DNA of 64,000 nucleotides, taken from Calditrichaceae bacterium. GTDB lineage: Bacteria > Calditrichota > Calditrichia > RBG-13-44-9 > J075. The stretch is from contig JABWBP010000016.1 in the NCBI GenBank assembly GCA_013360445.1, forward strand, positions 56,404-120,403, in the 5' to 3' direction. The translations under genes were made by a program, and so were the position numbers. The notes below the pieces were generated by a model. The model did not search any database. It was not told where the DNA came from and saw only the letters and a program-made list of their open reading frames with translations. Every line of letters starts with the position of its first letter. The first letter of the stretch is position 1. This document shows positions 2,889-63,785 of the stretch, one piece after another.

Positions 2889-3956
2889 CTACGGTTCGGA
2901 TTTGAGATAATTGAGGATTTCCGCGCTGCTCTCGGCGGTAAGGACCATTTTCAAGGCCGCGTTCAATTTTTCGATGTCGGAAATCGAGCGGATAAGGGCT
3001 TTCCCGTCTTCATTCAACCCGAACCGGGCAATTAGAAGCATGATCAATACATCCTGTTTATCCAATATGTAACCTTCTTCACGTCCCTTTTCGATTCCCT
3101 TTTCGATTCCCTTTTCGATTCCCTTTTCGATTCCTTTCTCGATTCCTTTTTTGATTCCTTCCTCTACCCCTTCTTTTCTCCAACGCTGGGCTAAAGTGGG
3201 CATAATATCTTCTCCTTCAATTTCACTCTCTTCCAGGATTTTGACTAACTGCTTCGGGGGAATGTCCCGCGTCTCCGCAATGTAAATCAGCAAAAAGTTA
3301 ACCTGATCTTTTTGCTCGATCAAGCCCATTTTGTTCCATAACCGCACCACCTGCCGGATGGTCTCTAAATCCTTGCGGTAAGCGCCTTTCATCAACAACA
3401 TGGCCGAGAGCAGGAATACGTTCTCTTTTAGAGGGCGGCTGCTTTCTGCCTGCCAATCCCAACGGTTGGCGTCGAAGAAGAGGTATTCAAAATTGAGCAG
3501 GAAGCGCCGCAACTCTTTGCCAACCTCGAACTGTTCCACAAATTGGGTGGGCAGTTTCCAGCGGCCTTTGCCGTGATAAAAGACCAGCGGAATAATCGCC
3601 CGGAGCGGTTTTCCTTCCGCGCTGTCTTTCTGCCACATCAAATACATGTAGCGCAGCAGTTGCATGAAGATCCTTTTATCCGGGTAGGATTTGTGCTCGA
3701 AGAGCAGATAGACGTCCAGCGGATTCTGCCGCCCTTTGGCAGCGCATTTTACCACCACATCGGACAGGGAGGCTTTGTATTCCTCCGAAACGTAGGAAGT
3801 GGTATCCAACTCCAGGGCGCCAAGATCCAGTTGCCAGCGCATTTCTTCCGGCAGGGCGATTTCTAAGAAAGTTTTCACGTTGGCGACGTCGGAGAAAACC
3901 TTCTTGAAAAAATTGTCGTGGACGTTTTCGATCTTGGCCATGGTCGGCTCGCTCAA
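2889..3956 (-). CDS. Rpn family recombination-promoting nuclease / putative transposase (YhgA-like, PD-(D/E)XK)
   Basis: 355 aa. Length and N-terminal block (DNFFKKVFSD, LLFEHKSYPD) resemble the YhgA/Rpn family. The C-terminal region carries the (GIEKG)x6 repeat often seen in this family. Confidence 0.65.
   Translation of the reverse strand: MSEPTMAKIENVHDNFFKKVFSDVANVKTFLEIALPEEMRWQLDLGALELDTTSYVSEEYKASLSDVVVKCAAKGRQNPLDVYLLFEHKSYPDKRIFMQLLRYMYLMWQKDSAEGKPLRAIIPLVFYHGKGRWKLPTQFVEQFEVGKELRRFLLNFEYLFFDANRWDWQAESSRPLKENVFLLSAMLLMKGAYRKDLETIRQVVRLWNKMGLIEQKDQVNFLLIYIAETRDIPPKQLVKILEESEIEGEDIMPTLAQRWRKEGVEEGIKKGIEKGIEKGIEKGIEKGIEKGREEGYILDKQDVLIMLLIARFGLNEDGKALIRSISDIEKLNAALKMVLTAESSAEILNYLKSEP
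3085..3174. repeat. 15-bp tandem repeat (cccttttcgattcc-type) x6 inside the Rpn gene, encoding GIEKG x6
   Basis: Near-perfect tandem copies are visible directly in the sequence. Confidence 0.9.
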
Positions 3957-6254: not shown

Positions 6255-6328
6255 CAGCCGGTGATTCCGGATACCGGATACCTTCTTTTCCTGGTCCCTG
6301 GCATCCGGAATCCGGTATCTGGTATCAT
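6255..6328. repeat. Imperfect inverted repeat (TCCGGATACCGG / CCGGAATCCGGTATC) in the 5' leader of uvrD
   Basis: Seen in sequence at 6264-6282 and 6301-6326. Possible regulatory hairpin. Confidence 0.25.
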
Positions 6329-11881: not shown

Positions 11882-11953
11882 CTGGCGCTCTAAAATCAGT
11901 ACTTTACCTTTCATGCTTTCACATTAAGGCAGGTAAGGTTGTGATGGGGTGAT

Positions 11954-11993
11954 GGAGTATTGGAGTATTGGAGTATTGGAGTATTGGAGTATT
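11954..11993. repeat. Tandem octamer (GGAGTATT)x5
   Basis: Perfect tandem copies between the kinase stop and the regulator start. Confidence 0.9.
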
Positions 11994-12056
11994 GAATGGA
12001 TTGTTAAAGGATTGAAAAATCGGCAGTCTCCCTCAACAAGAGGACTACCGAAAAAC

Positions 12057-12115
12057 CCATTAATCCAGTCATCCATTAATCCATCACTCCATTAATCCAA
12101 CACTACATTAATCCG
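12057..12115. repeat. Interspersed CCATTAATCC / CCAACACT motifs (x4), related to the copy at 23588-23625
   Basis: ACTCCATTAATCCAACACT is shared with 23588-23625. Confidence 0.5.
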
Positions 12116-12828: not shown

Positions 12829-12950
12829 GTAACTATTCAGGTTTTTTGCCACAGAGTTCACAGAGAGCACAGAGATATGGAAAAGTGCGTTAAACAAACC
12901 CCTTTAGTAGAAAAAAATGTTCCATATGACCTCTGTGGCTGAATAGTAAC
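12829..12950. mobile_element. MITE-like element (122 bp) with 12-bp terminal inverted repeats and an 8-bp target-site duplication
   Basis: TIRs are GTAACTATTCAG (12829-12840) and CTGAATAGTAAC (12939-12950), with 1 mismatch. The internal arms CCACAGAG...CCTCTGTGG are also inverted. Flanking direct repeat CCGAAATC at 12821-12828 and 12951-12958. A partial second copy lies at 25724-25771. Confidence 0.5.
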
Positions 12951-23587: not shown

Positions 23588-23625
23588 TCCAACACTCCAA
23601 CAATCCATTACTCCATTAATCCCCT
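23588..23625. repeat. ATCCAACACTCCAACAATCCATTACTCCATTAATCC repeat, same family as 12057-12115
   Basis: Shares ACTCCATTAATCC and CCAACACT with 12057-12115. Lies between the ROK kinase stop and the ABC ATPase start. Confidence 0.4.
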
Positions 23626-25512: not shown

Positions 25513-25723
25513 AGTTTTTGTTTGGTTATTGGTGGTTAGTGGTCAATCAATGTCGTTAAGTTGAGGCGTGGTCATAATTATCCGGTAGCGAAATCAAGGA
25601 GATTCCGGCATTCGCCGGAATGACAGTCGCCGACCTTGTCACTCCTGCTTCAAAGGAGTCACTTCGTGACGAATGCAGGAGTCTCCCGCTAAAAGCCAAC
25701 CCTTTGTTTATTAAAGAATCGGA

Positions 25724-25771
25724 GTAACTATTCAGGCGTTTTGCCACAGAGGCCACAGAGAGCACAGAGAC
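25724..25771. repeat. Partial copy (left arm) of the MITE-like element at 12829-12950
   Basis: GTAACTATTCAGGCGTTTTGCCACAGAGGCCACAGAGAGCACAGAGACAT matches 12829-12877 with few mismatches. No right arm is present. The region 25600-25700 also carries several short hairpins (e.g. ATTCCGG-N6-CCGGAAT). Confidence 0.45.
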
Positions 25772-25852
25772 ATAAAAAAATTCCTAATCAAATCACAAAT
25801 ACAGGGATATAAGGCTCTAAATCGGAATTATGACCACGTATCAACTAATTAA

Positions 25853-27358: not shown

Positions 27359-27982
27359 TCATCTTGCCAGCCGGTTCCTTCTAAAAAAGAAGTAATACAC
27401 GCCATAGCCAACCAGCGCTATCGCCAACCCGTAAAGAACGAATTTATTATAAGCGTTGATATATTTCAGAATCTCTTCCCAGCTTTTTCCGATGAAGGCG
27501 CCCGCGTAGATGACCGCCGCATTCCACGCTAACGAGCTTAGCGTTGACAACAGCGCCACCTTGAGGATATTCAGCTTTGCCAACCCCGCCGAAATCGAAA
27601 TAACCGAACGAACCCCGCTCAAAAAACGGTTGGCGAAAATGAGGGAGTAACCATATTTTTGCAGCCAGCGATCCGCTTTTTCCAGGCGGGATTTTTTTAG
27701 CCAGCGGATATTACGTTTCTCGAAAAACCCCCACCCTAACCCGTAGGCGATCAGAAAGAGAGTCATGAATCCCGCCACGCTTCCCAGGGTGGTGCTGGCC
27801 AGAACTCCCCAATAGCTCAGATGGCCTCTCCCTACAAAATAAGCGCCGATGAGCGTCACCGTATCCCCGGGAACCGGCGGCAGCAGGTTCTCCCCCATCG
27901 CGCTCAGGAAAAGCAATCCATACGCCAGCAAGGGATTTTCCTGGGGAATGCGTATAAACAGGTCGAAGAGTTCATTCCACAT
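27359..27982 (-). CDS. DedA/SNARE-associated family membrane protein
   Basis: Conserved DedA core (LLPPVPGDTVTLIGAYF ... FANRFLSGVRSVISISAGLAKL). Start placed at MWNELF. The upstream 50 codons of the ORF-track call are translated repeat DNA. Confidence 0.75.
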   Translation of the reverse strand: MWNELFDLFIRIPQENPLLAYGLLFLSAMGENLLPPVPGDTVTLIGAYFVGRGHLSYWGVLASTTLGSVAGFMTLFLIAYGLGWGFFEKRNIRWLKKSRLEKADRWLQKYGYSLIFANRFLSGVRSVISISAGLAKLNILKVALLSTLSSLAWNAAVIYAGAFIGKSWEEILKYINAYNKFVLYGLAIALVGYGVYYFFFRRNRLAR

Positions 27983-28004
27983 ATCGTATGAATACCGATG
28001 GCTT

Positions 28005-28160
28005 CGCCGCCATTTGCTGCGCGTCATTCGCTTCGCGTCATTCACTGCGTTGTCATTGATAGTCATTGGAGAAGCACTAAATGACGCCGAAGGCAAATGA
28101 CAATGAATGACAGCGAAGCCCCAACGGGGCAAGCAAATGACGGCGAAGCCAAATACCGCG
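28005..28160. repeat. Palindromic array of GTCATT/AATGAC half-sites with central GCCCCGTTGGGGC hairpin (family shared with 33133-33235 and 52178-52310)
   Basis: Four forward GTCATT and four reverse AATGAC copies at about 12-nt spacing. rc(28080-28160) aligns with 33150-33235. Confidence 0.6.
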
Positions 28161-28164
28161 CAGC

Positions 28165-32135: not shown

Positions 32136-33155
32136 CTACTCCCTCACCCGGCCAATAGGATAAAATTGGTACTGAAACTGCCTTCCAAAATCCAGCAGCG
32201 CCTGCCGGTGATGCGCCTCGATGATGAAAATGATCCCAATACCCAGGTTGAAGGTTTGCCGCATGTCTTCTTCGGGTACGTTCCCGGTTTCCTGAATCAG
32301 TCGGAAGATCGGGGGAACCGGCCAACTCTCCCAATCAATCTCCAGGGAAAGCCCCCCGGGCAGCAGGCGGTTGGTGTTTTTAACGATCCCACCGCCGGTC
32401 ACGTGGGAAATTCCCCGCAGGGGAAAATTCTCCAGCGCTTTGGAGATCACGGAATGGTAATTGGGATGGATTTTCAGCAGCTCGTCGGCCAGGGCAGCGT
32501 TCAGCGCCGGAATGTGGTCGTTCACCCCGTATTCGGCGAAGAGCACCCGCCGCGCCAGGGAATAGCCGTTGGTGTGCAGGCCGTTCCCGGATACTCCAAT
32601 GAGCGCGTCGCCGGGGCGGATGGCGCGGCCATCGATGATTTTCGATTTTTCCACGATCCCCACGATAGTGCCGCACATATCGTATTCGCCGGGCTGGTAG
32701 AGATCCGGCATTTCCGCGGTTTCCCCGCCGATGAGGGGAATGTTGGCGGCTTTGCAGGCCAGGGTAATCCCGGTAATCACCGCTTCATAAATTTCCGGCT
32801 GCAAATGGCCGCTGGCGAAGTAATCCAAAAAAAACAGCGGCGTTGCCCCGCATACCGCCACGTCGTTAGTGCAGTGGTTCACCAGATCCTGTCCCACGGT
32901 ATCGTGGCGGTTTGCCAGAATAGCCACTTTCAGCTTGGTTCCCACCCCGTCGGTAGAGGAGACCAGCACCGGTTCCTGAAAAGACCGCCCGGAGAGATCG
33001 TAAAAACCGCCGAACAAACCCACCCCGGAGAGTACTTCCGGGGTGTAGGTGCGGGCGATGCGCTCCTTCAGGCGTTCCAGGGAGCGTTCCGCTTTCTCGA
33101 TGTCCACTCCGGCGTCTTTGTAGGTTGTTTGTTGCTTCGCGTCATTCATGGTCAT
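32136..33155 (-). CDS. purM: Phosphoribosylformylglycinamidine cyclo-ligase (AIR synthetase)
   Basis: YKDAGVDI N-terminal motif, PurM N and C domains. The start codon lies inside the GTCATT repeat array (MTMND...). Confidence 0.9.
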   Translation of the reverse strand: MTMNDAKQQTTYKDAGVDIEKAERSLERLKERIARTYTPEVLSGVGLFGGFYDLSGRSFQEPVLVSSTDGVGTKLKVAILANRHDTVGQDLVNHCTNDVAVCGATPLFFLDYFASGHLQPEIYEAVITGITLACKAANIPLIGGETAEMPDLYQPGEYDMCGTIVGIVEKSKIIDGRAIRPGDALIGVSGNGLHTNGYSLARRVLFAEYGVNDHIPALNAALADELLKIHPNYHSVISKALENFPLRGISHVTGGGIVKNTNRLLPGGLSLEIDWESWPVPPIFRLIQETGNVPEEDMRQTFNLGIGIIFIIEAHHRQALLDFGRQFQYQFYPIGRVRE

Positions 33156-33235
33156 TCGCTTTCAGCGTCATTTGCCTGCCCCTTTGGGGCTTCGCGTCAT
33201 TCAATTGTCATTTGTCGCCATTCGTGAAATTGGTG
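33133..33235. repeat. GTCATT half-site array with GCCCCTTTGGGGC hairpin (same family as 28005-28160)
   Basis: GCGTCATTTGCCTGCCCCTTTGGGGCTTCGCGTCATTCAATTGTCATTTG aligns to the reverse complement of 28090-28140. Confidence 0.6.
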
Positions 33236-35811: not shown

Positions 35812-36050
35812 GTTAAACCGGGAGGGTTTAATCCCGACAAATTCACAGGGAAGTGAATGTAGTTGTCGGGAGGGCGGGAGCAGGGGCAGTTGGCAGGAGC
35901 AGGGGCAGGAGCAGGGGCAGGGAGCAGGGGCAGGGAGCAAGAGCAGGGGCAGGGAGAGACCAGGTGAGGAGTTGAAATTGCCTATTGCCTACTGCCACCT
36001 GCCTATTGCCTACTGCCACCTGCCAACTGCCCCTGCTCCTGCCTACTGCT
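35812..36050. repeat. Composite repeat: hairpin CCCGACAA/TTGTCGGG, tandem (GGAGCAGGGGCAG)x6, tandem TGCCTATTGCCTACTGCCACC x2, flanked by 27-bp inverted arms
   Basis: GGGGCAGTTGGCAGGAGCAGGGGCAGG (35883-35909) is the reverse complement of CCTGCCAACTGCCCCTGCTCCTGCC (36020-36044). ORF 35708-36073 is a translation artefact of these repeats. Confidence 0.7.
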
Positions 36051-42588: not shown

Positions 42589-42619
42589 GCGGGGGCGTTA
42601 CGACGGTGAAATGTGGCAA

Positions 42620-42680
42620 AAAGTGAAACGTGAAGCGTGAAACGTGATTTCACGCTTCACGTTTTACGTTTCACGCCTTA
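42620..42680. terminator. Bidirectional hairpin (AAACGTGAAGCGTGAAACGTGATTTCACGCTTCACGTTT) between convergent genes
   Basis: 17-bp perfect arms. Lies between the stop codons of 40555-42588 (+) and 42686-43618 (-). Member of the CGTGAAACG palindrome family. Confidence 0.55.
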
Positions 42681-44383: not shown

Positions 44384-44500
44384 GCAGTAGGCAGTAGGCA
44401 ATAGGCAGTAACCAGCAGCAGTGGGCAATAAACAGGAGCAAGGTTAAGAGGGTGAAGGTAAAATTGCTTACTGCTTACTGCCTACTCCCTACTCCCTCCG
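44384..44500. repeat. Inverted arms CAGTAGGCAGTAGGCAATAGGCAGTAA ... TTGCTTACTGCTTACTGCCTACTCCCTACTCCC (same family as 35970-36020)
   Basis: GGCAGTAGGCAATAGGCA is the reverse complement of TGCCTATTGCCTACTGCC at 35980-36020. A related GTAGGCGATAGGCAGTTGGCA lies at 51125-51150. Confidence 0.55.
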
Positions 44501-47191: not shown

Positions 47192-47265
47192 AAGCATAGC
47201 GCATGGCGCATAGCGTATAGTACGCGTTGCTGTTCTCTGCTCTTTGCGCTATGCTCCATACGCTT
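47192..47265. repeat. Hairpin repeat CATAGCGCATGGCGCATAGCG ... GCGCTATGCTCCATACGC (family shared with 60117-60206)
   Basis: Arms are inverted complements with 2 mismatches. A near-identical architecture lies at 60117-60206. Confidence 0.55.
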
Positions 47266-51678: not shown

Positions 51679-52218
51679 TCAACTTTTCAGCACCGCCAGG
51701 GGGCGAACCCGCGCGACCGCCCTGGCAATGCGGAACTGCTGCATCACCCGCAGCACGTTGTCAATATCCTTGAGGGCGTCCGGGGCCTGCTCGCTGATGT
51801 GATCCTTCCCGTAGCGGTAGAGCCGGATGCCGCGTCGTTGCATGGTCGCCTCGCGTTTTTCGTTCAATAGTTGGCGCACGTTCAGGCGGCAGAACAGGGC
51901 CATGTTTTTTGCGCGAATGAGATCGCTCCACAACAGGCCGCCCCGCACCCGGAACAACCGTTTGCCTACCTGAACGGCTTCGGGGTCTTCCGCCCGCCGC
52001 AGCAGGGGGAATTCCTTCCCTTCCGCTTCCCACAGGTTGATGGAAATGCAAATCTCCGCCTCGCCGGGATGGCGCTCCGCTACTAACGGCCGGGCGTGTT
52101 CCGCAATTTGTTCCAGCAGCGGCGCGTGGTTGCAGCGGATTTCTACCCTGGTCTGGTTGGACTCGACGTGGAGGGTAAGGTCATTTATGGTCATTTGCTG
52201 CGCGTCATTTATGGTCAT
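51679..52218 (-). CDS. Hypothetical protein (no recognised family)
   Basis: 179-aa ORF with coding-like composition. The N-terminal MTINDAQQMTIND is derived from the GTCATT repeat array, so the true start is uncertain (possibly 52194). Confidence 0.45.
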   Translation of the reverse strand: MTINDAQQMTINDLTLHVESNQTRVEIRCNHAPLLEQIAEHARPLVAERHPGEAEICISINLWEAEGKEFPLLRRAEDPEAVQVGKRLFRVRGGLLWSDLIRAKNMALFCRLNVRQLLNEKREATMQRRGIRLYRYGKDHISEQAPDALKDIDNVLRVMQQFRIARAVARVRPLAVLKS

Positions 52219-52310
52219 TTGGCTTCGCGGTCATTTATTGTCATTGGTTTCACAGTCATTTGTTGTCATTAGCGTTGCGTCATTGGTGGTCATTGGCTGC
52301 GCGTCATTCT
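52178..52310. repeat. Tandem about 24-bp repeat (TATGGTCATTTGCTGCGCGTCATT-like) x5.5; GTCATT half-site array
   Basis: Eleven GTCATT copies at 11-13 nt spacing. Same half-site family as 28005-28160 and 33133-33235, but without the central GC hairpin. Confidence 0.75.
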
Positions 52311-52383: not shown

Positions 52384-53097
52384 TCACTCTTCGCACACAA
52401 ACTTATACCCGTATCCCCGCACGGTTTGAATGTATTGGGGCGCGTCCGGCGCGTCTTCGATCTTTTTGCGCAGGCGCAGGATATGGTTATCCACGGTGCG
52501 GGTGGTAAGGTAGGCGTCGTAGGCGCCGTATTCCCACACTTCATCTAAGAGCTTTTCCCGGGTAATCAGCCTGCCGCGGAAGTCGATCAGGTATTCCAGG
52601 AGGCGGAATTCCCGGTGGGTCAGCTCTATCGCTTTGCCGTTCTTGCGCACCTCGTGGCGCTCGAAATCCACCTCCACGTTGCCAAAGCTGAAATGGGTAA
52701 TTTTTTCACCCTGCAAGCCGGTTTTCTGCGCGTACTCCACCCGCCGCAACAGCGCCCGCACCCGCGCCAGCACCTCGCGAGGGTTGAAGGGCTTGGTCAC
52801 GTAATCATCGGCGCCCAATTCCAGACCGAGGACTTTGTCCGTGGCGTCGTCGCGGGCGGTGAGCATCAGCACCGGCACGTTCACTTCCCGGTCGCGCAGC
52901 TTCTTCAGCACCTCGAACCCGCTCATTCCCGGCAGCATAATGTCTAAAATGATCACGTCCGGCTGAAACGATTCCGTTTTGGCCAGCCCCCGTTCCCCCG
53001 TAGCCGCGGAGCCGACCTCGAACCCTTCCTCCGAAAAGGTCTTTTCCAGGCCCAACAGCACGGAATCGTTGTCTTCGATGATCAGTATCTTGGCCAT
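52384..53097 (-). CDS. OmpR/PhoB-family response regulator (REC + winged helix)
   Basis: REC (DVIILDIMLPGMSG, phospho-Asp) plus C-terminal wHTH (RTVDNHILRLRKKIE ... VRGYGYKF). Confidence 0.9.
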   Translation of the reverse strand: MAKILIIEDNDSVLLGLEKTFSEEGFEVGSAATGERGLAKTESFQPDVIILDIMLPGMSGFEVLKKLRDREVNVPVLMLTARDDATDKVLGLELGADDYVTKPFNPREVLARVRALLRRVEYAQKTGLQGEKITHFSFGNVEVDFERHEVRKNGKAIELTHREFRLLEYLIDFRGRLITREKLLDEVWEYGAYDAYLTTRTVDNHILRLRKKIEDAPDAPQYIQTVRGYGYKFVCEE

Positions 53098-53103
53098 AAT
53101 ATC

Positions 53104-55257
53104 TTAACTTTTCAACGGCAATTTGATGGTAAACGTCGATCCCTTTCCGTACTCGCTTTCCACCGCTACCTCCCCCCCGTGCGCTTCCACGACGTGTTTC
53201 ACCAGCGCCAGCCCCAGGCCGGTGCCGGCAACGTAGGCCGCTTTCCCGTCTTCCACCCGGTAATAATCCTCGAAAATGTGCTTGAGATGTTTCTTTTCGA
53301 TGCCGATGCCCCGGTCGCACACCCGGATGGCCAGGAACCCATCGCTTTCCCGGGCGCTCACCGCCACCGGCGTTTTGTCCGGCGAATATTTGGCCGCGTT
53401 GGAGAGCAGGTTCAGCAGCGCCTGGAGGATGGCGTGGCGGTCGATGTAAACTTCTCCCAGGGAATCGGTAATATCCAGCTGGATATCGATCCCCTGGGTT
53501 TCCGCGTAGTAGCGAAAGGCATCTACGGCGGTGCGAACCACTGCTTCCGCCTCTTCGTACTCGAATTGATATTTCTTAACGCCCCGCTCGATTTTGGAAT
53601 AATCCAGCACGTTATCCACCATGCGCGCCAGGCGCTCGCTTTCCGCCTGGAGAATACGCAGGTATTTCCGCGCCTCCGTGTCGCCCTGGAAGCTTTCGCG
53701 TTTCGCCAAAAACTCCGCAAACATGCGGATCGAGGTCAACGGCGTTTTCAATTCGTGGGTTACCGAGGAGATGAAAGTGCTCTTTTGCAAGGAAAGGAGT
53801 TGCTGCTTGCGCAGGTGATAGAGCAGCGCCGCGGAGCCGGCGATGATGAATAGCCAGAGCAGAAAGATGCCCCCTAATTTTAGATAGAGCGCGCGAAACC
53901 CGCCCTGCAGCAGGGGATTTTGGGCGGTCGGAAAAACGCCCAACTGCCAGAAATTCAGGGGATCGCGCAGGGGAAGCAGCACCGCCGGGCGGTTGAGCAG
54001 GTTTTCTTCTCCCCCCAGCACGATCTTACGGTTCTCGTCTAAGACGGCGATGGCGACGTCTTCGGGATAGTTCTCCTCGTTCATGATGCGCGGAAAAATC
54101 TGTTTTTTCAACTGCTCCAGGTTGATCTCCAGCCCCAGCGCCGCCTCCACCACCTGGTTTTCGGTGCGCGACAGCAGGATATAGGCGACCAGGTAGGGCT
54201 GTTCTACCGCGTAATCGGATAAAAATTTGAAGCGGTTGCGGTAAGTGCCGCGCTCGATGATATCCCGGCTGAGGCGCTGGTGCAACTTTTCCACCAGGTA
54301 TTTGGCGCCGATGTTTTTCTTCTTCTGCTCCTGTAAGCGGCTGTACAGGGTCGAATATTCCTGTTGTTTTTCCCCTTCGAAACCGGTGATGAGCCGCCGG
54401 AAAAATTCCTGAATCCGCTCCACGAAAAAATCATACTGGGTGCGGTTGACTTCATCGGAGTGGTTGAGCAAATCCCGGTATAGCTCTAACAGGGCGTTCA
54501 TCGCCTCTTCCCGGCGATTCATGTTATCCAGGGTGACCACCCGCTGGTATTTGGCATAGAAACGCAGGTGCAGGTTGTGCAAGTCCCGGGCCTCGGGGTA
54601 GTTTTCAATGATCTGGCCGTAATAATCATGTGCGATTTGCCATTCCGCCCGGAACAGGTAAATGCGGGCAATCTCGCCCAGGGCGATGGCTTTCAGGTGC
54701 GGGGCCGGGAAGGTGTCCGCAATACCCTGGTAAATGCGAATCGCCCCTGCCGGGTTATTTTCTTTGAATTCTAAGTCTTCTGCCTGCTCGGTTAATTGCC
54801 GGAATTTCAGCAGCCAGGTTTCCAATTCCGGAACGGTTTCCCTGCCGAGTGCGACAGATGACTGCTCGTAGAAAATTTGCCCTGCCAGGGGATAGATCAC
54901 CCTCCCGGCGCTGCTGACCAGGTAAGCGTCGCTGATCAAGGAATCATTCGCAAGCAATTGGTTCAATAACCGCTCCTGCTCCTCGCCCGGCAGGGCCAAT
55001 AAGTTTCGCGGGGCGATATTCTCCAGCCAGCGCTGGCGCTCGGCATCGATCAATTGGGAGATTTCCGACGTCGCAAACCGCGCTAACCGCTCATAGCTCG
55101 CTACCACCCGTTGCCGATAGACCAGCCGTTCCGCTTCCAGCGCCCGGCCGGCAAAATAAGCCAGTAAAAAGCTGGGGATAATAATCAAGGCCAGGAACCA
55201 CAGCGCCAGTTTTAGCTGCCAGTTCTTCGACAAAATCGATGGCGGTTTAATTTTCAT
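53104..55257 (-). CDS. Sensor histidine kinase (large periplasmic helical/TPR-like sensor, HisKA + HATPase_c)
   Basis: Two TM helices flanking an about 450 aa periplasmic region. H-box SVTHELKTPLTSI. N/G1/G2 boxes (LLSNAAKYS, DRGIGI, GTGLGLAL). Start placed at MKIKPPS. Confidence 0.85.
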   Translation of the reverse strand: MKIKPPSILSKNWQLKLALWFLALIIIPSFLLAYFAGRALEAERLVYRQRVVASYERLARFATSEISQLIDAERQRWLENIAPRNLLALPGEEQERLLNQLLANDSLISDAYLVSSAGRVIYPLAGQIFYEQSSVALGRETVPELETWLLKFRQLTEQAEDLEFKENNPAGAIRIYQGIADTFPAPHLKAIALGEIARIYLFRAEWQIAHDYYGQIIENYPEARDLHNLHLRFYAKYQRVVTLDNMNRREEAMNALLELYRDLLNHSDEVNRTQYDFFVERIQEFFRRLITGFEGEKQQEYSTLYSRLQEQKKKNIGAKYLVEKLHQRLSRDIIERGTYRNRFKFLSDYAVEQPYLVAYILLSRTENQVVEAALGLEINLEQLKKQIFPRIMNEENYPEDVAIAVLDENRKIVLGGEENLLNRPAVLLPLRDPLNFWQLGVFPTAQNPLLQGGFRALYLKLGGIFLLWLFIIAGSAALLYHLRKQQLLSLQKSTFISSVTHELKTPLTSIRMFAEFLAKRESFQGDTEARKYLRILQAESERLARMVDNVLDYSKIERGVKKYQFEYEEAEAVVRTAVDAFRYYAETQGIDIQLDITDSLGEVYIDRHAILQALLNLLSNAAKYSPDKTPVAVSARESDGFLAIRVCDRGIGIEKKHLKHIFEDYYRVEDGKAAYVAGTGLGLALVKHVVEAHGGEVAVESEYGKGSTFTIKLPLKS

Positions 55258-55337
55258 CGTCGTCCAAAAATTAAAAGCCCGGAACCAAACTCCAAAACAC
55301 ATGAATACTTGCGCACTTGAACCCCCTCCCTCCCGCT

Positions 55338-55736
55338 TTACGGTAGCGCCTTCCACGCTTCCGCACAAGTGCAATGCGCGGGCATTTCCTTCGCCCGCTC
55401 GATCACCGCGTCCGCCAGCGCCAGCATCTGCCCGACCTTTTCCACCCGGTCTGCATGAAAATGTTTGGCATATTTGAAAGCCTGTTTATGGATCAGCAGA
55501 CCGCTCAAAAATCCCATCACTGCCCGGGCGGGGATGGGCCAGCGTGCGTGGGCGGCATACCCTTCCAGGAACAGGCGGGCAATTTCCCGGCGCAGACCGG
55601 CATCGACAAAATCCTGCGCGTCCAGGTAATACATAGAGGCGAGGAAATTCGCCACGTCGTATCCCGGGTGCCCCACGCAGCAACTGTCGAAATCTAACAA
55701 AAATAGTGATCCATCGTGCAGAAAAATATAATTCAT
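55338..55736 (-). pseudogene. C-terminal fragment of an aminoglycoside/protein-kinase-like phosphotransferase (APH family)
   Basis: LLDFDSCCVGHPGYDVANFL matches the APH DFD..GDPxYDLA block, but the catalytic HGD loop and N-lobe are absent. An in-frame stop lies 3 codons upstream of the ATG. 132 aa only. Confidence 0.4.
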
Positions 55737-56744: not shown

Positions 56745-56887
56745 ACCTGTAGTGCTAGTTCTACCAACGGACGCCCGATCTAACCGCGAATTGACGCGAA
56801 TAAACACTAATTTCGGCCAGTCTTGATCCTATAGTTATTCGCGTTATTCGCGTGTATTCGCGGTTTAAACCGACTAGCACTACAGGT
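56745..56887. mobile_element. MITE-like element (143 bp) with perfect 15-bp TIRs and 7-bp target-site duplication
   Basis: TIRs are ACCTGTAGTGCTAGT (56745-56759) and ACTAGCACTACAGGT (56873-56887). Flanking direct repeat AACCAGT at 56738-56744 and 56888-56894. Internal ATTCGCG-rich repeats. An inverted homologous copy lies at 63650-63785 and a fragment at 30140-30175. Confidence 0.55.
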
Positions 56888-59189: not shown

Positions 59190-60086
59190 CTACGCCGCCA
59201 GGCAGGCTATGGGAAAAAATATGTACTCCGAGAAGAACAGCACCCAAATGAACAGATAATACCGGGCGATCGAGGCGCGGTTGCCCGGGGTGGCCCGCAA
59301 ACTCGCCAGCCACATCATGCCCAGCAAGCCGGCGTGGGTTGCGGCCAATACCGCCCCGTTCACCCCCGGAATGCCGGCAATACCGGCAACGATCAATCCC
59401 AGGTAACAGGCCGCCAAAAGACCCCGCCCGACGTTAAATACCTTCCGCGCTCCCAGGGTGAGGGAGAGGGTCATAATCCTGAAGCGGCTGTCCCCTTCCA
59501 TGTCGGGAATGTCCTTGAACCAGGCGATCACCAGACTGAGGCCGAAAATAAAGGCGGTGAGCGCCCACATTTGCGGAGGGATATCCACCGCGCCGCTGAG
59601 TTGCCGGTTGAAATGCAGAAACAGGAACAGGTTCACCACCACTCCCCGCACCGTAAAGATGCAGGCGGCAGCCCAAAGGTGAAAACGTTTCAGGCGCAGG
59701 GGGGGCAGGGAATAAGCGGTTCCGATGAGCAGGCTGAGGATGACGGTAAGCGTTAAAAAGAACCCTTCGCGAAGCGCGATCAGCAGGGAAATCAGCAAAC
59801 AAACCGCGATAATGGCCTTGCCGGTGCGCAGGGAGTAGGTTCCCGCGGCCAGGGGTAAATGGGGTTTGTTGATGCGGTCGATCTCCACGTCGGTAAGCTG
59901 GTTCAATCCCACGATATAAATATTCGCCCCTAAACAGCTCAACAGCGCGGGGAACAGAATTTCCCATTGCCAGGGGGGAGTTCCGACGTGCGCCCAGGCG
60001 ATTAAATATAAGCCGACCACGCTCAAGGTAGTGCCGATAATAGTATGGGGGCGGGAGAACTGAATAAATGCTTGCAGCCACTTCAT
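59190..60086 (-). CDS. UbiA-family prenyltransferase, homogentisate phytyl/prenyltransferase-like
   Basis: First Asp-rich motif reads NQLTDVEIDRINKPHLPLAAG, the NQxxDxxID variant diagnostic of homogentisate prenyltransferases (cf. Synechocystis Slr1736 / plant VTE2). About 8 TM helices. Start set at MKWLQAF. The upstream ORF extension is repeat-derived. Confidence 0.7.
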   Translation of the reverse strand: MKWLQAFIQFSRPHTIIGTTLSVVGLYLIAWAHVGTPPWQWEILFPALLSCLGANIYIVGLNQLTDVEIDRINKPHLPLAAGTYSLRTGKAIIAVCLLISLLIALREGFFLTLTVILSLLIGTAYSLPPLRLKRFHLWAAACIFTVRGVVVNLFLFLHFNRQLSGAVDIPPQMWALTAFIFGLSLVIAWFKDIPDMEGDSRFRIMTLSLTLGARKVFNVGRGLLAACYLGLIVAGIAGIPGVNGAVLAATHAGLLGMMWLASLRATPGNRASIARYYLFIWVLFFSEYIFFPIACLAA

Positions 60087-60116
60087 CGTATCGCTCTTTA
60101 TTATGAAACTCTTTTC

Positions 60117-60206
60117 GCATAGCGCATGGCGCATGGAGCATAGCGCAGGGGACGGCAGGATATAGGCCATGCGCTCTGCCCTATGCGCTATGCTCCATGC
60201 GCTTTA
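60117..60206. repeat. Hairpin repeat GCGCATGGAGCATAGCGC ... GCGCTATGCTCCATGCGC (family shared with 47192-47265)
   Basis: 18-bp perfect inverted arms separated by about 35 nt. Sits between the prenyltransferase start and the methyltransferase stop. Confidence 0.6.
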
Positions 60207-61038
60207 CCCCTTGCAGCAGCCCAAAACGCACCAGCCCGCTGCGGTAGCCGCGAATCATCAAATTCATGGCCAGGGCCCCGCGGATGGTAGGCCAGCCCGC
60301 GCGGATCAATCCTCGAACGCTTTTGAAACTGAGCGCCGAGCGCGCCACCGCCTTCCAAAACGGGGATACCGCCCGGGTCCAATCGGCAGTGCGGAGATCG
60401 GTAAATCCCGCTTCGGCGGCAAAATTCTGGTACTCCTCGATGGAAACGAGCGGGGGCAAATGATAAACCCGGCAGAGACGCCGCAACAGGCGTTGTTCCG
60501 AGAAAGAGAGCGCCGGGGGCAGGGCGCGGCGGCACCAGGCGGCCATCAGGAATTTGCCGCCGGGGCGGAGCATTTCCATGCCGGCTTGCAAAAAGCGGCG
60601 CTTCTCGGGCATGTGCTCCCCGCTTTCCAGGGACCAGGCCAGGTCGAAGGCGCCGGGGCCAAACGGCGGATGAAGGGCGTCCGCGACGGCGAACTGCGCC
60701 CGCCCGCTCAACCCCGCTGCGGCGGCGCGCTCCCGGGCGCGGTTGGCCTGCACCGGGCTGAGGGTAATCCCCGCCACCCGGGCGTTGAATTTCTGCGCCA
60801 GGTACAGGGAACTGCCGCCAATCCCGCAGCCCAGGTCTAAAATATGCTCCGCCCCGCGGACCTCGCCCCAGCGCAGCAGTTCCTCGATCAGGTCAACCTG
60901 CGCCCGGCGATGGTCGCGTTTTTCGTCGCCATTCGGCCCGTAGTAACCGTGGTGCATGTGCTCTCCCCAGGTTTCTTCCCACAGCGCCGAGGAGACGTCG
61001 TAGAATTGGCGGATGTTGTGGTAGAGTTTTTCGGACAT
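60181..61038 (-). CDS. Gamma-tocopherol methyltransferase-like SAM-dependent methyltransferase (VTE4/Slr0089 family)
   Basis: Collinear conserved blocks: YHNIRQFYDVSSALWEETWGEHMHHGYYGP, ILDLGCGIGGSSLYLAQKF, SPVQANRA, AWSLESGEHMPEK, GLVRFGLL. Confidence 0.8.
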   Translation of the reverse strand: MSEKLYHNIRQFYDVSSALWEETWGEHMHHGYYGPNGDEKRDHRRAQVDLIEELLRWGEVRGAEHILDLGCGIGGSSLYLAQKFNARVAGITLSPVQANRARERAAAAGLSGRAQFAVADALHPPFGPGAFDLAWSLESGEHMPEKRRFLQAGMEMLRPGGKFLMAAWCRRALPPALSFSEQRLLRRLCRVYHLPPLVSIEEYQNFAAEAGFTDLRTADWTRAVSPFWKAVARSALSFKSVRGLIRAGWPTIRGALAMNLMIRGYRSGLVRFGLLQGVKRMEHSA

Positions 61039-61068
61039 GGGGAGTTCCGTGATGGGTGTTTTGTAACC

Positions 61069-61150
61069 CGTAAAACGTAATGCGTAACTTTGGGGAGTAT
61101 TTCGTATTTCGTATTGCGTATTCCGTTTTTGTTACGCATTACGTTTTACG
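61069..61150. terminator. Perfect 20-bp inverted repeat CGTAAAACGTAATGCGTAAC ... GTTACGCATTACGTTTTACG with 42-nt loop
   Basis: Located between the two methyltransferase genes. The loop has CGTATT direct repeats. CGTGAAACG/CGTAAAACG palindrome family. Confidence 0.5.
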
Positions 61151-63649: not shown

Positions 63650-63785
63650 TACGTGATAAATGATTTAAACCGCGGATTAACGCCGATAAACGCGAATGGC
63701 TGTGAGACTGCGACTGACCGGAATTAGCGTTCATTCGCGTCAATTCGCGGTTAGCCTGGAAAGCCGGTGTTAGAACTATCACGAC
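63650..63785. repeat. Inverted, diverged copy of the 56745-56887 MITE-like element
   Basis: rc(63700-63770) aligns to 56778-56830 (CTAACCGCGAATTGACGCGAATRAAC). rc(63650-63700) aligns to 56830-56885. The terminal repeats are degenerate. Confidence 0.5.

Follow-up and report, generated by a model that had tools for sequence, protein, structure and literature searches.

A dispersed intergenic repeat family built from GTCATT hexamers and GNA mini-hairpins in a Calditrichaceae genome and in other bacteria, mainly Bacteroidota

The window analysed here, a stretch of 64,000 nt from a Calditrichaceae bacterium (assembly GCA_013360445.1, contig JABWBP010000016.1, positions 56,404 to 120,403 of the forward strand), carries three arrays built from the polar hexamer GTCATT, which reads AATGAC on the opposite strand. 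The arrays adjoin the GlnRS and DedA genes (array 1), the DUF4416 and purM genes (array 2), and a response regulator gene and a probable RtcB remnant (array 3), all of these genes lying on the minus strand. Here, we show that the three arrays are copies of one dispersed intergenic repeat family, which occurs mainly in Bacteroidota and relatives. On balance, it is likely that they represent a hairpin element similar to repetitive extragenic palindromes (REPs) and their hairpin-forming doublets (REPINs), or to the intervening sequences (IVSs) of 23S rRNA, which acts in single-stranded nucleic acid, and that the start codons found in the arrays are incidental.

An initial annotation of the window had reported the arrays at these three loci and regarded them either as iteron-like binding sites or as a repeat element recruited as 5′ leader and start region. 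The arrays themselves were borne out: GTCATT and AATGAC together occur 45 times in the window (shuffle mean 28.4, shuffle maximum 43), 24 of the 45 fall into the three clusters, and the composite pattern GTCATT-N4-GTCATT-N7-11-GTCATT was found 7 times, compared with 0.00 in shuffled sequences. The spacing of 11-13 nt that was first given needs correction, since start-to-start distances actually alternate between 10 and 14-16 nt (mean approximately 12 nt, with a unit of approximately 24 nt).

The reading as a repeat element is upheld by the recurrence of the composite pattern in other genomes. A scan of 185,579 species genomes with this three-hexamer pattern identified at least 118 loci, and all family statistics given below rest on the matches listed from that scan, which were chosen by three exact hexamers. 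Among them, approximately 92 loci (~78%) are labelled Bacteroidota, including Saprospiraceae, Prolixibacteraceae, Chitinophagales, Fibrella, Dyadobacter, Segatella, and others, while the non-Bacteroidota matches include Ignavibacteria, metagenome-assembled genomes (MAGs) named 'delta proteobacterium', Nitrospinia, Acidobacteriota, and Oscillibacter. The GC content of these loci ranges from 27 to 61%. Nearly all of them carry extended arrays of up to 46 hexamers, whereas a scan of viral contigs gave 22 matches that are mostly bare three-hexamer matches without a surrounding array, which argues that the genome matches are not due to chance. Phages were considered as the main reservoir and rejected because the viral matches are mostly at chance level. 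In addition, a metagenome scan with GlnRS yielded only relatives of at most 76% identity, with neither DedA/purM synteny nor arrays.

Several features of the family that lie outside the search pattern, namely spacing, mini-hairpins, arm polarity, location, and strand symmetry, reveal a common grammar. The hexamers are separated by stereotyped spacers of 1-12 nt, in which 4-nt and 8-12-nt spacers alternate, and the period between copies varies from 7 to 18 nt. Start-to-start distances of AATGAC peak at 10 nt (322 of 816 intervals, with A-rich NAYN spacers), followed by 7-8 and 14-16 nt. Of 220 long spacers from 105 loci, 143 can form a stem of at least 2 bp closed by a triloop, compared with 44 in shuffled spacers; 115 of these 143 hairpins have a GNA loop (5.3 in shuffles), and no TNC loop was found on the AATGAC strand of the same 220 spacers. 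The GNA hairpins, which are of the GCGAAGC/GCGCAGC type, use 20 different stem sequences, with covarying forms such as GC-GAA-GC, AC-GAA-GT, GT-GAA-AC, GGC-GAA-GCC, GCAC-GCA-GTGC, ATCC-GAA-GGAT, and others. Loop-adjacent pairs comprise 252 Watson-Crick, 8 G.T, and 7 A.C pairs, and the wobble count in the stems showed no asymmetry.

A complete element consists of a 5′ GTCATT arm and a 3′ AATGAC arm that form a long imperfect palindrome, and thus reads alike on both strands. This polarity (GTCATTn...AATGACn) was found in 56 two-armed elements, compared with 2 in the reverse order. As all 12 elements located between convergent genes conform to it, selection for an A-rich leader was rejected as the cause of arm polarity. 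The two reverse-order elements are L064 4889-5096 (from a Planctomycetaceae MAG), whose displayed spacers are not GNA hairpins, and L038 114-283, and both may reflect unrelated convergence. Almost all clusters (163 of 169, in 119 sequences) are intergenic, the flanking genes being arranged as ++ in 51, -- in 44, +- in 21, and -+ in 18 cases, and in many cases the elements occupy the whole gap, reaching the stop and start codons.

Within the window, array 1 is the complete form. Its left arm has GTCATT at 28023, 28037, 28052, and 28062 on the plus strand (spanning 28023-28067), its right arm has AATGAC at 28080, 28096, 28106, and 28136 (28080-28141), the loop between them is GGAGAAGCACTA (28068-28079), and both edges consist of degenerate units. 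Its RNA has a folding energy of -85 kcal/mol (z = -7.4). Array 2, with five GTCATT copies at 33141-33212 and a degenerate GCCATT at 33217, is weakly structured as RNA (z = -2.7), and array 3, with eleven copies at 52180-52308 (Tandem Repeats Finder period 24, 5.2 copies), is unstructured, less so than even its own shuffles (z = +2.6). Long imperfect inverted symmetry, at first assigned to two arrays, thus applies to array 1 alone, arrays 2 and 3 being one-armed. The GCCCC-N3-GGGGC hairpin that had been described as central to two arrays does occur in arrays 1 and 2 (28118-28130 and 33178-33190, the remaining matches in the window being all in coding sequence); its position in array 1 is in the right arm, off the symmetry centre. 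In both arrays, this hairpin is part of a 23-nt insert with the common form GCGAAGCCCCA(A/C)(A/C)GGGGCA(A/G)GCA that is sited inside a spacer and is absent from the orthologous array 1 of the MAG PRO9 (L206). The insert gives the impression of a tiny element nested within the arrays.

Comparison of orthologous loci provides a view of how these elements evolve. PRO9 (L206, L018, L034; GCA_011526015.1, WYBG01...) is labelled Deltaproteobacteria; judging from its 87% DedA identity, 90% GluRS nucleotide identity, and the gene order that it shares with the window, it is evidently a mislabelled Calditrichota relative. It accounts for at least one of the 'delta proteobacterium' labels in the genome scan. 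The GlnRS-DedA element is also present in PRO9 (L206) and in the more distant L205, all three having the loop TAGTGCTTCTC. Fourfold-degenerate sites of the window and L206 are approximately 81% identical, and the hexamers show 0 changes at 52 sites. The right arm of PRO9 has been enlarged by 30-nt duplications, and the window has gained a 15-nt GCCCC hairpin. The purM array of L210 (92% PurM identity) has two extra units and retains the CATGAATGACGCGAAGCAA start, and array 3 of strain L234 differs by 2 substitutions, one of which is GAA>GCA in a triloop. In the three orthologue comparisons together, 2 of 154 hexamer sites and 28 of 251 other sites have changed (Fisher p = 1.2e-4); several of the changes are GAA<->GCA exchanges at the triloop N, and one is a compensatory stem change from AC..GT to GC..GC. 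These alignments show conservation of hexamers and hairpin stems, gain and loss of whole units, and vertical inheritance at the loci. The near-identical strains L001-L006 were dropped as evidence of turnover, as array 1 is identical in all of them. Contigs of several relatives start inside the GlnRS-DedA array (L205 1-148; L207-L209 1-99), and the elements thus appear to break short-read assemblies.

As the initial annotation had noted, the minus-strand ORFs (open reading frames) read MTMND for purM and MTIND for both the DedA ORF and ORF 51679-52218. Its proposal that the arrays serve as leader and start region stood for purM and was not supported for the other two ORFs. On the minus strand, purM reads ATGACCATGAATGAC, and the last two units of array 2 together with a GCGAAGC spacer encode the N-terminus M-T-M-N-D-A-K-Q. 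Homologues of PurM typically start approximately 6 residues before the YKDAGVD motif, and in the window no ATG, GTG, or TTG lies between the array ATGs (33155 and 33149) and this motif, so that the first 6-8 codons are made up of an AATGAC unit and the GCGAAGC spacer. The closest PurM relative (92% identity) has MAMNDAKQQTTYKD from the corresponding array, and both proteins begin M(T/A)MNDAKQQTTYKD. Judged by homologue starts, purM really does start within the terminal array units.

In the case of DedA, the N-termini of homologues correspond to the ATG at 27982, downstream of array 1. Leaving aside the window's own cluster, the listed homologues all have lengths of 172-222 aa and reach at most 88% coverage of the 235-aa query, the inspected N-termini are mostly M(E/W)xLxxQF, which matches this ATG, and the sequence ATG TGG AAT GA is kept in L205 and L206. 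The 28-residue MTIND... extension of the ORF beginning at 28066 equals one arm of the palindrome and is confined to the window's own cluster; on this evidence from homologues, the array-encoded extension is an annotation artefact. For ORF 51679-52218, the match to RtcB is limited to the last 63 residues and no homologues were found outside its own cluster, and it is probably the remnant of a truncated RtcB gene with a putative start in array 3. As ATGA is part of AATGAC, a gene next to an arm can receive from it a real start codon (as in purM) or a stop codon, and such an arm can also mislead gene callers (as in DedA and the RtcB remnant). A specific bias of arrays toward start codons did not appear in a count over the 169 clusters, with approximately 131 gene 5′ ends and approximately 137 gene 3′ ends facing arrays.

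An all-against-all BLAST of the 509 ORFs located within 3 kb of arrays revealed a single array-linked family, a protein of approximately 120 aa belonging to PF05635 (23S_rRNA_IVP, S23p; here called IVP, for intervening-sequence protein). In three Bacteroidota MAGs, a PF05635 ORF is flanked by GTCATT and AATGAC arms (L017 5701-6229, L062 7432-7960, and L097 2610-3120). These loci account for all arm pairs in which the AATGAC arm lies >200 nt after the GTCATT arm, and they hold three of the five clear IVP homologues in array-bearing loci. The PF05635 family is related to the Avd accessory protein (review PMC10053308). The same layout is seen in the IVS of 23S rRNA, which forms a stem with the S23p ORF in its loop and is removed by RNase III; in Coxiella, strains differ in the number of tandem heptamers that the IVS has upstream of this ORF (PMC4990558). 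A more ambitious proposal, which we consider quite improbable at present, is that, chiefly in Bacteroidota, Ignavibacteria, and Calditrichota, there is a so far overlooked family of hairpin cassettes, mobile or semi-domesticated, of which the GTCATT arrays are the non-autonomous form. Its full-length form would carry the PF05635 four-helix-bundle protein, with the hexamer and GNA units as the binding sites of that protein in single-stranded DNA or RNA. If true, the orphan IVS-protein family would gain a function, and the heptamer and hexamer repeats of the short tandemly repeated repetitive (STRR) type in these phyla would be explained.

In the mechanism that we favour, the elements would be selfish or commensal hairpins, with units that are recognised and maintained while the nucleic acid is single-stranded, the one-armed arrays 2 and 3 being copies of the same family as the two-armed array 1. 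DNA is favoured over RNA as the acting form in view of the thermodynamics of 2-bp GNA hairpins, which are very stable as DNA only, of the strand symmetry, and of the poor tolerance of wobble pairs; the melting temperature is 76.5 C for d(GCGAAGC) and 39 C for the related r(GCGAAAGC) (PMC13037366). On transcription, a two-armed copy would fold into a long hairpin between cistrons, which might plausibly be cut by RNase III or act as a barrier to decay, and the arrays may have a regulatory role at the RNA level, secondary or primary. That the primary selected role is instead a cis-acting one in RNA, with AAUGAC/GUCAUU arrays binding an RNA-binding protein (S1, Csp, or CsrA-like), of the sort suggested for TAACTGA heptamers, or forming RNase III or decay-barrier hairpins, and so tuning translation and mRNA stability in lineages that are sparing with Shine-Dalgarno sequences, seems unlikely. 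Arrays often lie 0-40 nt from start and stop codons, array 3 is an A-rich and unusually unstructured leader, array 1 forms a hairpin of -85 kcal/mol, and purM initiates inside an array. Precedents also exist: in Beggiatoaceae, Cyanobacteria, and Bacteroidetes, TAACTGA repeats are sited upstream of start codons (PMC4679880), and RNase III cuts the stems of IVSs (PMC4990558). Against such a role, one-armed arrays show no significant bias in gene orientation (27 vs 18 at 5′ ends, 21 vs 20 at 3′ ends), polarity is kept between convergent genes, where a leader is absent, sense and antisense RNAs fold equally well in a test of folding energy and G.U asymmetry (20 vs 15, p = 0.31), stems accept G.U no more than A.C, and most hairpins have 2-bp stems that are marginally stable as RNA.

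Neutral micro- or minisatellites ('long simple sequence repeats') produced by replication slippage alone, with GTCATT as one unit of many, would fit the abundance of other 7-9-nt tandem arrays with different units in the window and carrier genomes, the whole-unit copy-number changes between relatives, and the degenerate array edges. Slippage alone does not account for the recurrence of the same hexamer, GNA-hairpin spacer, and arm polarity across phyla and GC contents, for the conservation of hexamers and stems while loop N and short spacers drift, or for arms that specifically enclose IVP genes in three genomes, and we hold it to be distinctly improbable. Least probable of the readings weighed here is that the hexamers are iteron-like double-stranded sites for a DNA-binding protein (an OmpR/PhoB-type regulator on ~10-bp direct repeats, or a nucleoid or partition protein) that regulates adjacent genes. 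It draws on the commonest spacing of approximately one helical turn, on the conservation of hexamers between species, and on the position of array 3 directly downstream of an OmpR-family regulator gene. However, with a period of 7 to 18 nt there is no constant helical phase (7, 8, 14, 15, 16, and 18 nt being also common), arrays reach 46 units and are just as frequent after stop codons and between convergent genes as they are upstream of genes, the genes beside them have unrelated functions and only the IVP family recurs among these, no rep or par gene context is present at the window arrays, and the conserved, covarying GNA hairpins would have no role in a duplex operator and suggest single strands. 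The iteron part of the initial annotation is accordingly not supported. A Pho box or OmpR-type site, prompted by the adjacent regulator gene, was rejected on spacing and distribution; the period of the Pho box is 11 bp, not 10. The OmpR-family response regulator and histidine kinase genes (52384-55374, minus strand) lie directly upstream of array 3, and the presence of the regulator beside 10-nt-spaced direct repeats is probably a coincidence.

Several points weigh against a hairpin element acting in single-stranded nucleic acid or against its proposed partner. Defined termini and target-site duplications were not seen, the array edges just decaying, and no presence/absence polymorphism of a GTCATT array was observed. 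Part of the hexamer conservation could be due to concerted evolution inside the arrays, three exact hexamers were required for entry into the cross-genome set, the taxonomic labels of MAGs are unreliable (PRO9 groups with Calditrichota), and genes in the other genomes were mapped by a crude longest-ORF approach. Published thermodynamics and the absence of wobble pairs are the grounds on which DNA is preferred to RNA. No partner protein for the arrays was identified; the window ORFs contain neither a Y1 transposase nor an IVP gene or homologue, other protein families among the 509 neighbouring ORFs are generic and none is enriched, and the IVP link consists of three loci, with zero in Calditrichota. 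In addition, the only plasmid IVP gene found, on a Pseudanabaena (cyanobacterial) plasmid, has no flanking arrays.

Apart from one repeat region, the window sequence equals contigs of two NCBI MAGs, and homologues of its DedA and PurM proteins bear Calditrichota/Calditrichia names. Other short-period arrays are common in the window and often form inverted pairs; the main features are collected in the table below. Further intergenic arrays with 7-9-nt units lie at 11953-12114, 23588-23622, 61060-61130, 56780-56862, and 63722-63749. The non-GTCATT arrays of the window are mostly composed of an array followed by its inverted complement, and CGCATAG, TGCCTAC/GCAGTAG, and CCATTAATCC are units present at two window loci. 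Arrays of the TGCCTAC type were also found in the Bacteroidales MAGs L042, L071, and L092, which suggests that more than one repeat unit is common to several phyla. In the window and carrier genomes, Tandem Repeats Finder reported 749 non-GTCATT rows in approximately 0.86 Mb, with period 7 the commonest. Given the many other short arrays in the window, the GTCATT arrays are one family within a genome-wide phenomenon.

Table. Arrays, nested inserts, gene starts, and other short-period arrays in the window (positions are those of the 64,000-nt stretch)
Feature	Position	Strand	Remarks
Array 1, complete two-armed element	27999..28164	.	Between GlnRS stop (28165) and true DedA start (27982)
Nested 23-nt insert GCGAAGCCCCAACGGGGCAAGCA	28113..28135	+	In array 1 spacer; GCGAAGC mini-hairpin and GCCCC-N3-GGGGC hairpin
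Nested 23-nt insert, second copy, near-identical	33173..33195	-	Inside array 2; minus strand reads GCGAAGCCCCAAAGGGGCAGGCA
Array 2, one-armed	33141..33222	-	AATGAC on purM sense strand; 5 exact units and one degenerate
Array 3, one-armed, 11 units, period ~24	52180..52308	-	AATGAC on minus strand; between OmpR-type regulator gene (52384-53097) and orphan ORF
purM start region ATG ACC ATG	33147..33155	-	Both candidate starts from AATGAC units
True DedA start codon (MWNELFD...), judged by homologues	27980..27982	-	Homologue N-termini; downstream of array 1
179-aa orphan ORF starting in array 3	51679-52218	-	Residues 116-178 match RtcB C-terminus
GATACCG array	6263-6326		
GGGCAG/TGCCTAC array	35872-36049		
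AAACGTG/TTCACGC array	42619-42676		
GCAGTAG/TGCTTAC array	44384-44497		
CGCATAG array	47194-47260 and 60116-60214		

The second CGCATAG array is a palindrome that takes up the junction of the UbiA prenyltransferase ORF with the methyltransferase ORF (59190-61038), both of which run into it; it likely gives UbiA a false upstream start and places the methyltransferase stop codon inside the array. Another region (25690-25822) shows indel differences among strains that are otherwise 100% identical: a 74-nt element (CGTTACTATTCAG followed by CCACAGAG x3 ...) is present in L001 (14092-14165) and L002 (14092-14228) and absent from the window, and 70 nt of the window with GTAACTATTCAGG...CACAGAG repeats are missing from L002. 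These strain differences suggest mobility or a proneness to indels of the CACAGAG-heptamer element, which is found in the window a second time at 12838-12875. The sole transposase-like gene of the window encodes a YhgA/Rpn-like putative transposase (2889-3956, minus strand; PF04754, E = 1.8e-42), and the ORF contains near its 3′ end a 12-nt tandem repeat, TCCCTTTTCGAT x6, at 3084-3158. An Rfam scan of the window gave no match at gathering score, array 1 having only chance-level matches (E >= 0.9).

In practice, the GTCATT elements cause false N-terminal extensions (such as DedA MTIND...), ORFs that run into arrays in MAG gene calls, and broken assemblies, and occasionally donate a real start codon (purM). 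The family offers an experimentally usable grammar, comprising a fixed hexamer, a covarying GNA mini-hairpin, strict arm polarity, and PF05635 as a candidate partner, and culturable carriers include Fibrella, Dyadobacter linearis, Segatella copri, and Melioribacter.

To our knowledge, STRR sequences, heptamer simple-sequence repeats, and TAACTGA repeats have been recognised for approximately 35 years in Cyanobacteria, Bacteroidetes, and giant sulfur bacteria without an established mechanism. Pure 7-nt GGTCATT arrays occur in L026 and L027, and this heptamer is presumably a rotation of STRR2 (TTGGTCA). The window arrays resemble STRR/TAACTGA heptamer arrays in being dispersed and intergenic, in varying by whole units, and in lying often immediately upstream of start codons, and the hosts of the latter include Bacteroidetes and Cyanobacteria (MacGregor 2015, PMC4679880). 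They differ in their composite unit of approximately 24 nt (a pair of hexamers with one 4-nt and one GNA mini-hairpin spacer), in the fixed two-arm polarity of GTCATT elements, and in the Calditrichota host of the window; neither GTCATT nor AATGAC is mentioned in PMC4679880.

REPs, bacterial interspersed mosaic elements (BIMEs), and REPINs (PMC3733652, PMC6006769) are likewise present as many intergenic copies, with a unit made of a short conserved tag and a small hairpin. When functional, they consist of two inverted copies that together fold into a larger hairpin, singletons being decayed remains, they persist vertically over long periods, and they are handled as single-stranded DNA. The GTCATT elements share with them an intergenic location (163 of 169), high copy number, and inverted pairs capable of hairpin formation (56 two-armed elements; array 1 at -85 kcal/mol). 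Nevertheless, GTCATT units lack a GT[AG]G or CGTC tag, their hairpins are 7-12 nt rather than 20-40 nt long, and each arm is a tandem array, not one REP. No REP-associated tyrosine transposase (RAYT, TnpA-Y1) for the GTCATT elements was found among the window ORFs. Y1 subclasses specific to Bacteroidetes and Cyanobacteria exist (PMC6006769), and the RAYT/REP tables of that paper, including those of Bacteroidetes subclass 2.6, contain neither AATGAC nor GTCATT.

The 23S rRNA IVSs share with the L017, L062, and L097 loci a long inverted-repeat stem enclosing a PF05635 ORF; in contrast to IVSs, GTCATT elements are placed between protein-coding genes instead of in rRNA, an ORF is missing from most copies (and from all three of the window), and their stems consist of hexamer arrays. 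BrickBuilt, a minisatellite-bearing MITE (miniature inverted-repeat transposable element) of Porphyromonas gingivalis (PMC4596501), is also intergenic, belongs to Bacteroidetes, contains a tandem array of approximately 23 nt with variable copy number, folds by prediction into long stem-loops, and leads annotation pipelines to predict spurious genes. However, it has unique leader and tail segments and IS5-like terminal inverted repeats and is restricted to one species, whereas GTCATT elements have no unique ends and span phyla; the single GTCATT in the BrickBuilt paper was discarded because it is inside an unrelated terminal inverted repeat. Unlike MITEs in general, GTCATT copies have degenerate units at their edges, contain 3 to 46 hexamers each, and show no target-site duplication.

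Iterons and centromere-like arrays are also short direct repeats, some of them in two opposed groups, but GTCATT arrays are chromosomal, occupy many loci per genome (three in 64 kb), and have variable phase (spacings of 7, 8, 10, 14, 15, 16, or 18 nt), hairpin spacers, and neighbours without a rep or par gene context. With a 6-nt repeat and stereotyped spacers of 1-12 nt they are not CRISPR arrays, and promoter and terminator scans of the window placed no site within the three arrays, which separates them from intrinsic terminators. Their long spacers correspond to the d(GCGNAGC) mini-hairpin DNA of Hirao (review PMC13037366) or to stem-extended forms of it, with GNA always on one strand. In nature, this motif is known as a single hairpin at priming and promoter sites of phages or plasmids, not as tandem arrays between chromosomal genes. 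None of the papers searched reports GTCATT hexamers together with GNA mini-hairpins, a fixed polarity, and IVP cargo, and an earlier account may exist elsewhere. The nearest elements on record are STRR and heptamer simple-sequence repeats including TAACTGA, REP/REPIN, IVS, and BrickBuilt.

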